A stretch of DNA of 61,987 nucleotides, taken from Clostridia bacterium (GTDB lineage: Bacteria > Bacillota > Clostridia > TANB77 > CAG-508). A program made the translations under genes and the position numbers. Shown piece by piece: positions 25,233 through 53,534 of the stretch (the stretch's first letter is position 1; every line of letters begins with the position of its first letter). The notes beneath the pieces are model-generated. The model was not told the DNA's origin. It saw nothing but the letters and a program-made list of their open reading frames with translations, and ran no database searches. Location: the NCBI GenBank assembly GCA_017397545.1, contig JAFQIK010000037.1, positions 1 through 61,987 on the forward strand. Direction: 5' to 3'.

Positions 25233-25862
25233 TTATTGAATTTTGCAATCTGATATATCAGGTTTTACAATATCTTCATCTTTTACTATATCAAAAGAAT
25301 AATAACGATTTGTTATATATGTAAAATCCATTACTCTTATTATAATTCCTGTTTCTTTTTCTACCCATATTTTATAATCTTTTGATAATTCTATTGAATA
25401 ACATTCTTTATTATTACATTCTTCTGTTTTTAATTTTGATGTAAGTGCTAATGGTATTTTGAATTTAATATCATCATACTCACTAATTGTATTAACATAT
25501 ACTGGTGATATATTTCCATTTGCTAATAGCACTTTATCTTCTCCAGCTTGTATAATTACTATTTTTTCATCATCTTTATTGTATGCGATAATTTTTCTTT
25601 CATCTAAAATATTATGATTAAAAGTTTGTGATGTACTTAAAAGATTTCCATCTTTATAGTATGTTTTTGTTAATGTCACAGAATCATTTGTTAAACCATA
25701 TGTATCTACCACAAAATTTGTTTTGCCTACATAATCTTTAGATACATTTACAAGTTTTGTTATGATTATATATTTTCTTAATGTAAATATGGCAAATACT
25801 ACAAGTAAAGCTAATACTACAAGTAATAATTTTTTCCATAATTTCATTCTTTTCTTCTCCAT
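25233..25862 (-). CDS. membrane-anchored hypothetical protein
   Basis: 209-aa ORF with an N-terminal TM helix. Confidence 0.55.
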   Translation of the reverse strand: MEKKRMKLWKKLLLVVLALLVVFAIFTLRKYIIITKLVNVSKDYVGKTNFVVDTYGLTNDSVTLTKTYYKDGNLLSTSQTFNHNILDERKIIAYNKDDEKIVIIQAGEDKVLLANGNISPVYVNTISEYDDIKFKIPLALTSKLKTEECNNKECYSIELSKDYKIWVEKETGIIIRVMDFTYITNRYYSFDIVKDEDIVKPDISDCKIQ

Positions 25863-26005
25863 ATAAATCTCCTCCTCTTTTGTGCAACCAAGCTATCTTG
25901 AGTTCTTTTAGAACTTTTAGACCTTTGGCTTTGCGTACATAAACTTTCGTTTATTTTGCCTTTTTACAATATCTAATTATATTTTAGCATATTTTGCTAT
26001 TTTTT

Positions 26006-32404: not shown

Positions 32405-33871
32405 TTAAAAATGTTTTCCACCTTTTGGTTTATTATCTTTATCTTCATTTGCTTCTGTTTCACTAATACTTTGTGTTTCTATATTTTCTGCTACCTGACT
32501 ATTATTTATTTCATTTACTTTTTTTAGTTTATCTAATAATACTTTATATTTTTTATAGTCTACTATAATGTATATAGATAACCCAATTAAAGCTACTATA
32601 CAAAGTGCTAATGCACCCATTATTATTTTTGTTTGATTTTGCGCATACCAAGCAGTTATTCCTGCTAATGTTCCATTAAACCAATTTGATATTCTTCCCA
32701 TTAGTGTTGGTGGTGCTGGTTCTTCTTCTTTATTAAAGCTAATTGCATATGTTTTTATTTCTTCTGATTCTTTTGTTTCTTCTCCTGTTGCGACATCACC
32801 TTCTACTGTTACAGGAATTTTTGCTATAATTGTTATAATGTTTTCTCCTGTTTTTAATTGTTCGTTTCCTTGTATATCTATTGTTGCTCCTTCTATATTA
32901 GCAATTGCTTCTATGTCTAATTTTTCTACCCAATACTCTAAATCTTGTAATTTATATTCATATATATCAAAACTAAATGTTGGGTTTAAAGGTAGTTCTA
33001 TTAATTCTCCATTTTGATTCGTATATTTTATTATAAGTGTATTTAAAGATAATGCTGGTCTTGACCTTGTTACTTTTATAATATAATCTGTTGTACTTCC
33101 ATCTTCTGCTTTTACTGTTATTGTAACAGTATTTTCTCCTTCTTTTAATTCTGTATTTCCTTCCACAATATAACTTGCTTTTTTATCTGTTGTTGTAGCA
33201 GCTACATTAACAGTATTTACTTCGTTTGGAACTGTTAATGTATATTCTTTAACATCTTTATTAAACTCTGGTGTAAGAACACCTTCTGCTACTGCAAGTG
33301 TTGCAAGTGAGCTATCTTTTGATTTTTCTTCTTCTTTAGTTGTTGTTTGGCTACTTGGTTTAGTTGTTGTTGTTGGTTTACTTGTTGAAGGCTTATTATT
33401 TGTTGATGGTTTATTTGTTGTTCCTCCAGAACTACTTCCACTTCCTGAAGTACTTCCCCCTGTGTTTGTTTGTGGGGGTTTAGTAACTTCTGGTTCTTTT
33501 ACTGTTATTGTAATTGATTTACTAACATTTTGTTTTTTTAAATCACTACCTGCTATTTGACCTGTTAAATAAATGGTATATGTTCCTGCAGAATTAGCAG
33601 AAAAAGTAGCATTTATAACATTTTTAGAAGTTTCTCCATCACTAGCATCTGTACTATCTGTAGTACCAGATAAACTTCCTCCACTTGCACTAATTTTTAA
33701 ATTCCATGTTTCTGTAGAATTTATAGATACAGATATATTTGTACTTTTTCCTTTTTCTATAGTTTTGTTTCCAGCTGATATACTTGCGCTTGCTGCACAT
33801 ACTATATTAGGAATTAATAATAACAATATTAAAACTATTAATCCAGTTGTAACTTTTGTAATTCTATTCAT
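32405..33871 (-). CDS. cell-surface protein with cadherin-like beta-sandwich domains, S/T/P/G-rich linker and C-terminal TM anchor
   Basis: signal peptide; LATLAVAEGVLTPEFNKDVKEYTLTVPNEVNTVNVAA...YIIKVTR repeat type. Confidence 0.7.
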   Translation of the reverse strand: MNRITKVTTGLIVLILLLLIPNIVCAASASISAGNKTIEKGKSTNISVSINSTETWNLKISASGGSLSGTTDSTDASDGETSKNVINATFSANSAGTYTIYLTGQIAGSDLKKQNVSKSITITVKEPEVTKPPQTNTGGSTSGSGSSSGGTTNKPSTNNKPSTSKPTTTTKPSSQTTTKEEEKSKDSSLATLAVAEGVLTPEFNKDVKEYTLTVPNEVNTVNVAATTTDKKASYIVEGNTELKEGENTVTITVKAEDGSTTDYIIKVTRSRPALSLNTLIIKYTNQNGELIELPLNPTFSFDIYEYKLQDLEYWVEKLDIEAIANIEGATIDIQGNEQLKTGENIITIIAKIPVTVEGDVATGEETKESEEIKTYAISFNKEEEPAPPTLMGRISNWFNGTLAGITAWYAQNQTKIIMGALALCIVALIGLSIYIIVDYKKYKVLLDKLKKVNEINNSQVAENIETQSISETEANEDKDNKPKGGKHF

Positions 33872-33886
33872 ATTTAAAAATCTCCT

Positions 33887-35593
33887 TTACTTTATAGTAA
33901 TTGCTTGTTTTTGAGATATATGTCTTTTTAATAATGCCATATCTATTATATCAATATCTGAAACATTTTCTTGTAGTATTCCAGCTTTAAGATATATTTC
34001 TGAAAGTTTTGCTCTTCCTGAAATATGTCTTTTAACTAAAGCCATATCTATTATATCTACTTCTCCATCTCCATTTACATCACCAAGTTTTACTACTGTA
34101 TATTTTTCTACTCCATCTATTTTTATTTTTGCTCCTGTTCCAACTAATGTATCTCCTGTTATTTCTGTTCCTTCACTATTTAATATAATAGCATTTTCAT
34201 ATTTTTCTTTTATTTTATCTACTGTTGTATTTGGTTCTGTTGTTATTATATTATTTTCATCTGGTTCTGAAAATCTATTATTTGTACTTGTATCTACATC
34301 TTTTTTATCTTCTGGTTCTATTAATGTTAATGGAACTAAATAAGTTTTACTATTGTCACTTGCTGCTCTTGCCATATATCCTTGTCCATAAGGTGTTATA
34401 ACTTTATCATAATAATATCCACCTGTTTTTGTTGTAGCTTTTTCTGTTCTTAAAATTATTTTGCTAGCATCTATGCTTAATATATGTTTTCCATCTGGTG
34501 CATCTTTTAATTTTAATGAATCATTTACATTTATATATACAAGTTCTCCATCCATTTGAGGCATATTTTTGTATAATGGAATTGTAAATACAAATTGATT
34601 ATTGTATATTCCATATTTTATGTATTTACTTCTCATTATTCTTCCTTCTGAATACGCTCCCCATACATTAGTCATATATTGATGTCCATATAAATTACTT
34701 GTATCAACTACATTAAATTTTTGAAAATATGTTGTACTTTGTCCTTTAGCAATATAGTCATCTTTTAAAAATTTTGAACCTTCTACTATAGCTTTGTACA
34801 TTGTTGTCCAACCTTTTTCCTTAGCATATTTTAACCCATTTTCTATTGTTCCCGCATCTTCTGTTGGATATGCACCTATATTAAATAAATTGTATACTCC
34901 TACATATTCTTTTTTTCCGTCTCCATTTATATCATAACCTTTTCCAAGTGATAAATCTGAACCTTCATTTGATTGTTCTTGTATTATCTTTGCTGTTATA
35001 AAATATGGATTTATATTGTATGTTGTTGCAGCATTCATTATTCCTTTTACGCAGTCTTCTCTATTGGCATCTGTATCCATAAAAGTACCACTAATCATTG
35101 CTCTTACAGCTGCTTCATCTCCATTTGATGAATTCAACTCTTGAAATTGAAATATATCGTATTCATTTAAAAAATTTCTTGGATCCATCATATATGAAAC
35201 AGCAGCATGTGATGCACATTTCCAACTTTCTCCATCATATGCTTTGTTACATGAACATCCCCAGTCTGAAGTATAATATCCTACTTGTACTAAATTCTTT
35301 CCGTGATTGCTTTCCTTAGATATAACCGTATTCCAATCTAAACCTGTTTCATATAAATTAATTGTCCATGTTGGATGATTTTTAACAAGTGTATTTATTA
35401 AAATTCTGTATCCTGGGTATAATGCATCAAAATTTGATGGTAAATTATTAGATGAATTAGTGTATGTATATGTTGCTCCATATGATATTATTTGTGTTTG
35501 CTTATTAAAGCTAAATAACGAATATATAATAACAAAAAGAATCAAAATACATAGAATTTTTTTATTAAATTGTAATGTTTTATTTCTTTGCAT
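33887..35593 (-). CDS. secreted N-acetylglucosaminidase-like (GH73-type) peptidoglycan hydrolase with C-terminal dockerin-type repeats
   Basis: signal/TM; FITAKIIQEQSNEG...YNLFNIGAY region; C-terminal duplicated GDVNGDGEVDIIDMALVKRHI / DIDIIDMALLKRHI. Confidence 0.65.
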   Translation of the reverse strand: MQRNKTLQFNKKILCILILFVIIYSLFSFNKQTQIISYGATYTYTNSSNNLPSNFDALYPGYRILINTLVKNHPTWTINLYETGLDWNTVISKESNHGKNLVQVGYYTSDWGCSCNKAYDGESWKCASHAAVSYMMDPRNFLNEYDIFQFQELNSSNGDEAAVRAMISGTFMDTDANREDCVKGIMNAATTYNINPYFITAKIIQEQSNEGSDLSLGKGYDINGDGKKEYVGVYNLFNIGAYPTEDAGTIENGLKYAKEKGWTTMYKAIVEGSKFLKDDYIAKGQSTTYFQKFNVVDTSNLYGHQYMTNVWGAYSEGRIMRSKYIKYGIYNNQFVFTIPLYKNMPQMDGELVYINVNDSLKLKDAPDGKHILSIDASKIILRTEKATTKTGGYYYDKVITPYGQGYMARAASDNSKTYLVPLTLIEPEDKKDVDTSTNNRFSEPDENNIITTEPNTTVDKIKEKYENAIILNSEGTEITGDTLVGTGAKIKIDGVEKYTVVKLGDVNGDGEVDIIDMALVKRHISGRAKLSEIYLKAGILQENVSDIDIIDMALLKRHISQKQAITIK

Positions 35594-39452: not shown

Positions 39453-39765
39453 TGGTGGGCAGGGATGGATTCGAACCATCGTACTCGTATGAGAACAGAT
39501 TTCTTACTACTATAGTTTTCACTACCATTTTAAATGTTTGTAGTCTGGACTTTCTCTTCATCTTTTATAAGATGCCAGGTATAAAGTCTCTACACTCAAG
39601 AATTTCTTCTTTAGCTCGGGATTATCATCAGCTTTATCTGTTAAGACTTCCCCGAATTAGCCTAGTTTTCACCATACAATCACTTGTATGGGCTGCAATT
39701 TCTGATTTTTTGATTATAAATCAAAGCCTACAGTCTGCCGCCTTTAGCCACTCGGCCACCTACCC
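39453..39765 (-). tRNA. tRNA-Tyr (anticodon GTA), class II, interrupted in the anticodon loop by a group I intron
   Basis: exon 1 (39765..39730) GGGTAGGTGGCCGAGTGGCTAAAGGCGGCAGACTGT; exon 2 (39502..39453) AAATCTGTTCTCATACGAGTACGATGGTTCGAATCCATCCCTGCCCACCA; joined they give an 86-nt cloverleaf with loop CUGUAAA. Confidence 0.85.
39503..39729 (-). ncRNA. group I intron (IC3-like, tRNA type), 227 nt
   Basis: 5' exon ends in U and the intron ends in G; CTAATTCGGGGAAGTCTTAAC, TAATCCCGAGCTAAAG and GAGTGTAGAGACTTTA match the conserved cores of the Azoarcus/Anabaena tRNA introns (..AAUUCGGCGAAACCUAAG.., ..GGUGUAGAGACUA..). Confidence 0.75.
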
Positions 39766-39793: not shown

Positions 39794-39870
39794 TGGTGCT
39801 CCCTCAAGGATTCGAACCTTGGACCCACCGGTTATGAGCCGGTTGCTCTGACCAACTGAGCTAAGGGAGC
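39794..39870 (-). tRNA. tRNA with CAT anticodon (elongator Met, or lysidine-type Ile2, which it resembles more)
   Basis: GCTCCCTTAGCTCAGTTGGTCAGAGCAACCGGCTCATAACCGGTGGGTCCAAGGTTCGAATCCTTGAGGGAGCACCA; G1-C72 pair argues against an initiator. Confidence 0.85.
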
Positions 39871-39941: not shown

Positions 39942-40430
39942 TTATTTTTTTACATATGTTATATATTCGTAATCGTAAGGATTTGCTTCGTTTTTTATCC
40001 CTTTTTCTTTAGATATTTCTTTCCATATGTCTTCTTTTATTTCTGGAAACCATACATCTCCTTCAAAACTTTGATTTATTTTTGTTATATACATTTTATT
40101 TGCATATGGCATAAGAAGTTTATATATAGTTGCTCCACCTATTACAAAACATTCTTCATCTGAATTTATATATTTATCTAATTTAGATATATCATCTAAA
40201 ACTTCAACATTTTCATTTTCTATATCCATTTCCATATCATTGCATAAAATAATATGTTTTCTATTTGGTAAAACCCTTCCTAAAGACTCAAAAGTTTTTC
40301 TTCCCATTATTATTTTATGTCCTGATGTTATTTCTTTAAATCTTTTTAAATCTTCTGGCAAATACCAAATCAATTGATTATCTTTTCCTATTACATTTTC
40401 ATTTGCAATTGCAACTATTATTGATAACAT
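39942..40430 (-). CDS. folA: dihydrofolate reductase
   Basis: start MLSIIVAIANENVIGKDNQLIW after GAAAGGAAAG; GRKTFESLG motif; the ORF-track extension to 40511 lacks support. Confidence 0.9.
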   Translation of the reverse strand: MLSIIVAIANENVIGKDNQLIWYLPEDLKRFKEITSGHKIIMGRKTFESLGRVLPNRKHIILCNDMEMDIENENVEVLDDISKLDKYINSDEECFVIGGATIYKLLMPYANKMYITKINQSFEGDVWFPEIKEDIWKEISKEKGIKNEANPYDYEYITYVKK

Positions 40431-40512
40431 ATTTATCTTTCCTTTCATTTTCAATCTATTTAATTTAATTCTAGTATAATGTTTTTTAGTGAACGCTGTA
40501 GGAACCGACAAC

Positions 40513-41304
40513 CTATACTGCTACATCCATTTTAATTTTTCCTAAATGCTTATAATCTATCAATTCTATATCTTCTGGTTTAAAATCGTAAAAATCTTTT
40601 ATTTCTGGGTTTATCCAAAGTTTTGGTGCAGGATAAGCTTGATTTCTTCTTGATAATTGTTCCTTCATTCCTTCTACTTGATTTTCATATATATGTGCAT
40701 TACTTATACATACAGTAAGCATTCCTGGTTTTAAATTTGTAACTTGTGCAAGTAAATGAATAAATACTGCGTATTGGGTTACATTAAATGGATGTCCCAA
40801 TGGTATATCGTTTGATCTTATTGTAAGCATACAATTCAATTTTGCATCTGTTACATCCCAACAACTATTAAATACACATGGATATAATGCTCCTGTATCT
40901 AAATAAGGTATTTGCCATAAATTTATTACCATTCTTCTATCTTGCGGATTTGTTTTTAATTGATTTATTAATTTATCTACTTGATTAAATTCTTTAACTA
41001 CCCAGCCATATGATGTTCCTATTGTTCCATCTTCCATTTCCCATTCATCCCATATATGAACGTTTTGTTCATGTAAATCGCTTATTTTGTTTGATTGTTT
41101 TTGAAATATCCATAATAATTCTTTTACCGCAGCTTTAAATGCTACAAATTTTGTTGTAAGTATTGGAAATTCTTCTTCTAAATTGAATTGTAGAATTTGA
41201 TGTGGTAATTTATATGTTGCTATTCCTGTTCTATTTTGATCATAATATCCTTTTGTTAATATTCTTTCTACTAGGTCTAAATATTGTTCATCATACTTGC
41301 TCAT
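40513..41304 (-). CDS. thyA: thymidylate synthase
   Basis: 263-aa ORF; ..[17 protein letters not shown].. and other ThyA motifs. Confidence 0.95.
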
Positions 41305-53178: not shown

Positions 53179-53534
53179 TGGTGGAGATGGAGGGAGTTGA
53201 ACCCTCGTCCAATAATTTTTCCATATAAACATCTACGGGTGTAGTTTGTTATTAAAAATTCCCGCTAATTCTCGTTAACAAACAAACTTGAATTTTTGGT
53301 ATCCTTTTATTACCCATTATTTCCAAGGAAAGAAATAATTTTGTTTCCTACTTTAGTCGGCGCTTTATCCATAACAGTAGGCTTTATGGTAAAACGACGC
53401 TCGCACTATTAGGCAGCGTATGCTAATTCTTTATCAGCGTTTATATTTATTTTGCTTTTTTTAAGTGGCCAAAGCAACCATCCACTACTCGCAGTTTATA
53501 CTTCTAAATTACTGTCGAAACCAAATACATCCCC
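53179..53534 (-). ncRNA. ssrA: tmRNA
   Basis: 5' GGGGATGTATTTGGTTTCGACAG, 3' tRNA-like GGAGGGAGTTGAACCCTC..CTCCACCA; internal tag frame ending ..DKELAYAA TAA TAG. Confidence 0.9.

Follow-up and report, generated by a model that had tools for sequence, protein, structure and literature searches.

The locus considered here raises the question of how a gene for tRNA-Tyr that is interrupted within its anticodon loop can yield a mature tRNA. The interrupted gene lies on the minus strand at positions 39453-39765 of the window, by which we mean the whole 61,987-nucleotide (nt) stretch analysed (contig JAFQIK010000037.1 of a Clostridia bacterium, assembly GCA_017397545.1), and we conclude with considerable confidence that it is a functional tRNA-Tyr(GUA) gene split between U35 and A36 by a small group I intron that lacks an open reading frame (ORF) and can be termed IC3-like by sequence similarity. 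The 5' exon (39765-39730, minus strand; GGGUAGGUGGCCGAGUGGCUAAAGGCGGCAGACUGU) is 36 nt long, covers tRNA positions 1-35 and ends in GACUGU, in which C32, U33, G34 and U35 are the last four bases. The insert (39729-39503, minus strand; AGGCUUUG...GUAGUAAG) is 227 nt long, starts with AGGC and ends in GUAAG, with omega-G at 39503. The 50-nt 3' exon (39502-39453, minus strand; AAAUCUGUUCUCAUACGAGUACGAUGGUUCGAAUCCAUCCCUGCCCACCA, AAAUCUG...CCACCA) contains A36, A37, the remainder of the anticodon arm, the long variable arm, the T arm, the acceptor strand and an encoded CCA. A preliminary description of this DNA, made from the sequence alone, had the coordinates, strand, exon lengths and insert length exact to the base.

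Once the insert is removed and GGCAGACUGU is joined to AAAUCUGUUC (GACUGU-AAAUCUG), ARAGORN calls an 86-nt tRNA-Tyr(gta) with a canonical class II cloverleaf, a 7-bp acceptor stem, a long variable arm and CCA, which agrees with the class II tRNA-Tyr(GUA) described previously. The ARAGORN search that had been suggested as a check misses the gene in its default form, which lists four tRNAs and one transfer-messenger RNA (tmRNA) in the window, and it recovers the gene only from the spliced sequence. As had also been said, ARAGORN finds no second tRNA-Tyr in the 62-kb window, and the ORFs overlying the region (109, 63, 41 and 45 amino acids), where the preliminary description had dismissed two as spurious, have no Pfam match; the longest of those over the intron runs on the opposite strand. 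The intron is 34% G+C, and the host G+C is very low (25-30% in the window).

The proposal that the insert is a group I intron has held up, being supported by a significant Rfam match, covariation in 112 distinct homologues, compensatory evolution of the exons and an intron-less allele. With 551 nt as query, the full Rfam Intron_gpI model (RF00028, positions 1-253) matches with 39.0 bits and an E-value of 1.7e-8, so that the suggested Rfam check gives a significant result, yet one that lies under the gathering score of 50. For comparison, a homologue in another genome (L169) scores 42.4 bits and an Azoarcus-type Ile intron (L234) 53.8 bits, and the Rfam Intron_gpI seed holds no bacterial intron (Williams 2020, bioRxiv 10.1101/2020.01.27.920355). 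Minimum free energy folding of the intron gives z = -2.5 and recovers P2, P4-P5, P6a and P8, although not the pseudoknot, and is weak evidence by itself. Because the Rfam score is significant yet below the curated threshold, comparative evidence was sought.

The search pattern used for this purpose combines two blocks of the intron core with GACTGT, where the anticodon stem-loop of tRNA-Tyr ends; it has one match in the window and none in 100 window shuffles, and the feature is therefore far beyond chance. When one genome per species in the Genome Taxonomy Database (GTDB) was scanned, at least 119 contigs matched, and in-silico splicing followed by ARAGORN gave tRNA-Tyr(gta) in 113 of the 119 among the matches listed, with a 114th split tRNA-Tyr copy (L228) clipped by the end of the stored stretch. 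All 114 introns are 214-250 nt long, 112 of them are distinct, and they are 57-96% identical to the window intron (median 81%). The first base is G in 60 of the 114; in those genes only the 3' exon can supply A36, and the junction is thereby fixed at 35/36. A terminal G delimits all 114 introns, the delimiting filter having demanded one. Among the matches listed, the carriers are all uncultured gut or rumen metagenome-assembled genomes (MAGs) of Bacillota, labelled Clostridia, Clostridium sp. (including CAG:567, CAG:575 and CAG:354), Bacillota, Bacilli, Tenericutes, Mycoplasma or Erysipelotrichaceae, and their samples come from humans, sheep, goats, rabbits, chickens and deer. The nearest species genome among them is L128, an uncultured Clostridium sp. 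MAG with an intron 95.6% identical to that of the window and flanks about 87% identical.

A divergent subgroup of the tRNA-Tyr introns (L150, L169, L180-L182, L188, L196, L204, L215, L219 and L225), in MAGs labelled Bacilli, Tenericutes, Mycoplasma or Erysipelotrichaceae, has exons totalling 84 nt and a guide that ends in C (UUGCAC), with loss of the C32 pair of P1. In this subgroup P3 is wholly swapped through compensatory changes, and P5 has a canonical CCUAAG/UAUGG-like receptor.

The same scan caught other tRNA group I introns by chance (L224, L130, L141, L162 and L234). These five remaining matches, which include Fibrobacter, Chloroflexota, Peregrinibacteria and Thiobacillus, have a fortuitous GACTGT upstream and were rejected as not tRNA-Tyr. 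L234 has an Azoarcus-like group I intron in a CAU tRNA, L130 (Fibrobacter) likewise has a group I intron in a CAU tRNA, and the intron at L224:1650-1811 (a Thiobacillus MAG) apparently lies in tRNA-Thr(UGU) after loop nucleotide 3. A viral scan with the GACTGT-anchored pattern gave 25 matches, none of them a tRNA-Tyr intron, and thus no phage-borne copy; the introns matched interrupt a protein-coding gene and tRNA-Leu-like genes. A group I intron that has these core blocks recurs in many IMG/VR contigs (L012, L032, L094, L365-L367, L370-L372, L376-L380 and L383), where it splits a protein-coding gene with exon ends like ...GAAGATTTGCTCAACAACACGACTGT. Two other kinds of pattern were discarded: early ones that placed the P4' register as CNCCGAGC, which was wrong and gave no match in the window, and an intron-core-only pattern that saturates IMG/VR with unrelated phage and tRNA introns (at least 120 contigs) and is uninformative.

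The fold of the intron was drawn by hand on the window sequence, with P1, a hairpin in the P1 loop, P2, P3, P4, P5-P5a, P6-P6a, P7, P8 and a P9 that carries two hairpins, and was scored on an alignment (A1) of the 114 introns with 12-nt exon flanks, using the 112 distinct sequences. Standard pairs occupy 95.8% of 7875 pair cells; sliding the 3' partners by 1-3 columns lowers this to 34-44%. Both sides have changed in 37 of the 71 pairs, and no observed measure is attained in any of 500 column shuffles.

All elements of the fold are on the minus strand. The 5' strand of P1, CUGU|AG (39733-39728), consists of the last four exon and first two intron bases and pairs with the internal guide UUGCAG (39698-39693), of which T44, T45, G46, C47 and A48 are invariant in A1. 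All 112 distinct sequences have the resulting U35.G46 wobble at the 5' splice site, in keeping with the U(-1)/omega-G rule and the 35/36 junction of the preliminary description, and two guide U residues would form a P10 of about 2 bp with A36 and A37 of the 3' exon. In the hairpin within the P1 loop (39725-39701) the central pair covaries (G-C in 67, A-U in 20 and C-G in 7 sequences) and the outer pairs are weak. P2 (39691-39672) has a GNRA loop, GUGA in the window; all eight of its pairs have changed on both sides, with G59 and A62 of the loop invariant and L2 always GNRA in A1. The two strands of P3, CUAGG (39665-39661) and CCUGG (39579-39575), form the P3/P7 pseudoknot, with 99.6% of cells paired and compensatory changes in four of five pairs. 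P4 (UUCGGGG/UCCCGAG), which is invariant, encloses J4/5 AA, P5-P5a and J5/4 AA (39656-39615). P5-P5a contains a tetraloop-receptor-like internal loop, with compensatory changes in one of three P5 pairs and all three P5a pairs, and the P5 pair 96:117 is seen as U-A, C-G, A-U and G-C. A P5 receptor together with GNRA loops is the usual tertiary brace of small tRNA introns, as in the structure of the Azoarcus intron.

In the second half of the intron, P6-P6a (39614-39595) is a hairpin with a GAAA loop, compensatory changes in four of six pairs and 99.3% of cells paired. The 5' strand of P7, G(A)GACUU with a bulged A (39590-39584), pairs with AAGUCC (39552-39547) in 112 of 112 sequences; by analogy with other group I introns, P7 is presumed to be the guanosine-binding helix. 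P8 (39574-39559) has compensatory changes in four of six pairs, and J8/7 (AAGAGA) with the P7 3' strand (39558-39547) is invariant or nearly so in A1 and fits the Rfam consensus GAAGAUAUAGUC. P9 (ACUAC/GUAGU, 39544-39506) shows one C-G for U-A swap and encloses P9a and P9b, which have compensatory changes in three of three and four of five pairs respectively; L9b is always GAAA. The three core blocks that the preliminary description had picked out are all present, with helix labels that were slightly off: AAUUCGGGGAAGUC corresponds to J3/4-P4-J4/5-P5, AAUCCCGAGCUAAAG to J5/4-P4'-P6 and GUGUAGAGACU to J6/7-P7.

A further line of evidence comes from uninterrupted genes. A metagenome scan for the exact 32-nt exon-exon junction matched at least 120 contigs, and those among the matches listed are uninterrupted tRNA-Tyr genes, eight of them identical to the spliced sequence of the window. 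Their flanks are syntenic with the window, with a gene for an AMP-binding enzyme and a hypothetical gene upstream (and in L361 also thyA-dhfr), and a tRNA(CAU)-tRNA-Tyr arrangement is found in 79 of the 120 intron-less contigs among the matches listed. As these genes occupy the syntenic locus, they are alleles in related lineages and not second copies. The closest discordant pair consists of L125, a sheep rumen MAG with the intron, and L285, which lacks it; their AMP-binding proteins are 96.9% identical, and from the promoter through tRNA(CAU), the spacer and the exons to the terminator their DNA agrees at nearly every base. Only one large stretch sets the two apart, a block of 221 nt that falls precisely between CTGT and AAATC, and its ends cannot be slid because the intron begins and ends with G (CTGT|G...G|AAATC). 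This indel thus independently reproduces the boundaries given by the group I rule, including omega-G, and the presence and absence of the intron in near-identical relatives shows a recent gain or loss.

Several observations weigh against the conclusion that this is a functional gene with a group I intron. In addition to the Rfam score that falls short of the gathering threshold, a whole-window Rfam search at that threshold lists no Intron_gpI here, and a 38-kb Rfam search lost most homologues to filters. The fold was drawn on the window sequence, itself a member of A1, so that the slid-partner control favours the fold, although the both-side pair changes are free of this bias. P4 and P7 are invariant and give no covariation, and the search pattern dictated their 5' strands, though not their 3' strands, which are still invariant and 100% paired. 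Intron-less alleles are so common that the lineage can evidently do without the intron. The low Rfam score also speaks for the extreme reading in which the likeness to group I introns arose by chance or by misassembly and the tRNA halves are unrelated fragments, to which we give next to no credence. The same arrangement recurs in assemblies made independently from samples of human, sheep, goat, rabbit, chicken and deer origin, the same contig is present in a metagenome assembly in ENA, and this reading is effectively refuted by the homologues, the covariation and the L125/L285 pair.

Whether the split genes are alive can be judged from their exons. The 29 distinct mature tRNAs derived from split genes have 99.4% of cloverleaf cells paired, and compensatory changes are seen in 13 of 23 pairs, including acceptor and anticodon-stem pairs that span the intron. 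Such intron-spanning pairs imply that the two exons end in one functional tRNA and hence that the intron is removed, and the split tRNA-Tyr genes are, on this comparative evidence, probably functional.

This bears on the possibility that the split gene is a decaying copy with an intron that no longer splices, tRNA-Tyr being supplied by an uninterrupted gene elsewhere. Only 62 kb of this genome is visible, a second tRNA-Tyr could lie beyond it, which also counts against our conclusion, and intron-less genes with the same mature sequence do occur in metagenomes. Those genes, however, are alleles at the orthologous locus in other lineages, no uninterrupted tRNA-Tyr was found in 817 kb of flanks around 113 split genes, and purifying selection and compensatory changes are evident in both intron and exons across more than 110 species. 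The window also retains a perfect promoter and a terminator. A sigma-70 type promoter (39919-39891, minus strand; TTGACA-17 nt-TATAAT), predicted from its match to 12 of 12 consensus positions, lies 21 nt upstream of tRNA(CAU), and an intrinsic terminator (39452-39420, minus strand) consists of a hairpin and seven U residues directly after the CCA, with an RNAfold energy of -15.5 kcal/mol; a simple consensus terminator scan did not list it, although RNAfold does show the hairpin. We regard a decaying copy as very improbable.

The first gene of the operon is tRNA(CAU) (39870-39794, minus strand; ARAGORN, and 73.3 bits with the Rfam tRNA model), and among the matches listed 75 of 113 related loci likewise have a tRNA(CAT) immediately before the split tRNA-Tyr. 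The call for the window gene is Met(CAT), its loop is CUCAUAA and the stem below the loop ACCGG/CCGGU; it may instead be a lysidine-modified tRNA-Ile2. The Rfam model Plastid-ycf2 5'UTR matches it in antisense (39796-39870, plus strand; about 42 bits, threshold 65.7), as it does at L127, L167, L175, L189, L195 and L208, and this looks like an artefact of a tRNA-derived model and not a feature.

A functional split gene suggests the following course of events. The tRNA-Tyr would be co-transcribed with the upstream tRNA(CAU), from the consensus promoter to the intrinsic terminator, and the intron would fold into P1-P9 with the P3/P7 pseudoknot. The guide UUGCAG would pair with exon bases C32-U35 and set U35 in the U.G wobble, and exogenous guanosine, held at the P7 G-C pair beside the bulged A, would attack after U35. 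Omega-G (39503) would then take over the guanosine site, and attack by the 3' OH of U35 after omega-G would join U35 to A36 and release the intron. Modification of the anticodon loop (Q34 and position 37) would be completed only after splicing. Self-splicing is proposed here from established group I chemistry.

An alternative is that the intron is a genuine group I intron that is not strictly self-splicing and needs a host protein, a chaperone or RNA-binding cofactor, to splice efficiently. It is a small intron of 34% G+C in an AT-rich host, its P1 has only six pairs and its P10 only about two, and weak helices in group I introns often need help to fold. Against such a dependence, two GNRA tetraloops, a receptor-like P5 loop and the full P3-P8 core are all conserved, and no candidate cofactor gene is linked to the locus. 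We consider a protein requirement unlikely, while granting it more weight than a decaying copy.

How the intron comes and goes was followed with a neighbour-joining tree of AMP-binding proteins from 35 loci, 20 with and 15 without the intron. The state of the intron has changed at least seven times on this tree, compared with a mean of 11.7 and a minimum of 8 for shuffled labels, and is thus clustered yet has changed repeatedly. A co-descent test of intron distance on AMP-binding protein distance gave a Spearman coefficient of 0.18 (permutation p of about 0.04), a weak and noisy signal, with odd pairs at a protein distance of about 0.6 that are probably bad or paralogous high-scoring segment pairs. 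The introns contain no endonuclease gene, being 214-250 nt in all 114 copies with no coding capacity, and classical homing is therefore excluded. So patchy a distribution at a single orthologous locus suggests that the intron has been precisely lost, gained or both on repeated occasions. Loss could occur by recombination with an intron-less allele or with complementary DNA, and gain by exchange between alleles or by reverse splicing.

The same distribution bears on whether the intron is kept for a benefit to the host, such as coupling the supply of tRNA-Tyr to guanosine nucleotides, or protecting the anticodon loop, or the gene itself, against nucleases or integrating elements. Its persistence in more than 100 species with position and fold conserved would agree with a benefit. 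The patchiness, with at least seven changes of state among 35 loci, intron-less alleles in abundance and near-identical relatives that differ, fits a neutral or mildly selfish passenger better, and no linked regulatory feature was seen at the locus. We think a host benefit improbable, less so than a decaying copy. A passenger could also be one that still moves, that is, an intron lineage without an endonuclease that spreads by reverse splicing or allele exchange and hops among Tyr, Asp and Asn tRNAs. A hop between tRNAs is conceivable because the guide needs only CUGU, and the tRNAs for Tyr, Asp and Asn, the queuosine family, share C32-U33-G34-U35. The perfect L125/L285 indel, the seven or more changes of state in 35 loci and a closest catalogued relative in tRNA-Asp after CUGU fit such mobility, which we nonetheless hold to be a doubtful proposition, if a somewhat better one than a required host protein.

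The locus has one other difference among relatives. A thyA-dhfr pair separates the hypothetical gene from the tRNA operon in the window (39942-41304, minus strand) and otherwise only in L128, L152, L170 and L361. Most relatives have the hypothetical gene directly followed by the tRNAs, and the pair is therefore an insertion or deletion of its own.

The preliminary description knew of no group I intron established in a tRNA-Tyr of a Firmicute. In reviews, the bacterial tRNA genes said to harbour such introns are confined to those for Leu(UAA), fMet, Ile(CAU) and Arg in cyanobacteria and proteobacteria (PMC4033280; PMC8450103), and other papers name either these classical hosts or no bacterial tRNA host. 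A tRNA-Tyr intron at this exact site is nevertheless on record: a preprint by K. P. Williams, in which 80,413 bacterial and 1,028 archaeal genomes were scanned and the number of types rose from 4 to 21, has in its seed alignment Mba143.Tyr.4Ug, whose 5' exon ends in CUGU and whose guide is UUGCAG (bioRxiv 10.1101/2020.01.27.920355). The window intron belongs to a kind already present in a bioinformatic catalogue and is not a new kind of element; we found no experimental study of Tyr.4Ug introns in the literature. CAG-type assemblies were reportedly public before the data freeze of that preprint, and from these dates Clostridia copies are probably among its matches.

Both the window intron and Tyr.4Ug are small, lack an ORF and have tRNA-Tyr as host; both are inserted after nucleotide 4 of the anticodon loop (CUGU|), with U at -1, G at omega and the guide UUGCAG. 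Their cores differ, being GAUAACGGUGAAA / UACCGU in the seed and CUAAUUCGGGGAA / UCCCGAG in the window intron. In plain pairwise scores of hand-copied sequences against 16 of the 26 Williams seeds, Asp.4Ug comes first and the Tyr seed fifth. With Asp.4Ug (seed Wba81.Asp.4Ug) the window intron has in common the P3-J3/4-P4 block CUAGGCUAAUUCGGGGAA, the P4'-P6 block UAAUCCCGAGCUAAA, the J6/7-P7-P3' block GUGUAGAGACU.UAUACCU.G, the 5' exon end CUGU and a guide ending in GCAG; Asp.4Ug differs in its host, tRNA-Asp(GUC), in the sequence and length of P1, P2, P6, P8 and P9, and in having a single hairpin in P9.

The classical IC3 members, in Azoarcus tRNA-Ile(CAU), cyanobacterial tRNA-Leu(UAA) and tRNA-fMet and Agrobacterium tRNA-Arg, are like the window intron in lying in the anticodon loop, in their length of about 200-250 nt without an ORF, in GNRA loops on P2 and P9 and a P5 receptor, and in the core blocks AAUUCGG.GAA, CCGAGC.AAG, GUGUAGAGACU and A.AGUCC, which L234 and the Williams seeds also have. 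They are unlike it in host tRNA and site, being inserted after loop nucleotide 5 in Ile2 and Arg, 3 in Leu and 2 in fMet (bioRxiv 10.1101/2020.01.27.920355) and not at 35/36, and the window lineage is in addition AT-rich, carries the extra hairpin in the P1 loop and falls below the Rfam threshold. The introns of eukaryotic and archaeal tRNA-Tyr genes also lie in the anticodon loop, although they are short, sit at position 37/38, have a bulge-helix-bulge motif and are cut by a protein endonuclease, none of which applies to the window intron.

Because default ARAGORN and Rfam at its curated threshold both miss the gene, many genomes of uncultured gut and rumen Clostridia will seem to have no tRNA-Tyr, and this apparent absence distorts estimates of completeness and inferences about codon usage. 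The suggestion that splicing may be essential is plausible, with the view limited to 62 kb of the genome, and if the split gene is the sole tRNA-Tyr gene, every tyrosine codon in the carriers hinges on a ribozyme reaction. The exact presence/absence alleles offer a natural system for the gain and loss of an ORF-less group I intron in a gut community. With a textbook mechanism and a catalogued type, the intron is of moderate interest, as an under-annotated element that is widespread in gut Clostridia.

Elsewhere in the window, a full-length c-di-GMP-I (cyclic diguanylate) riboswitch aptamer (25880-25970, minus strand; 70.7 bits with Rfam) immediately precedes an ORF of 209 residues (25233-25862, minus strand). 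The tmRNA gene at 53179-53534 (minus strand; ARAGORN, and 173.6 bits with Rfam) is standard and encodes the tag peptide ADKELAYAA. Two adjacent large proteins are encoded at 32405-35593 (minus strand). That at 33887-35593 has a dockerin type I domain and that at 32405-33871 a cadherin-like beta sandwich, and together they suggest a cellulosome-type fibre degrader.

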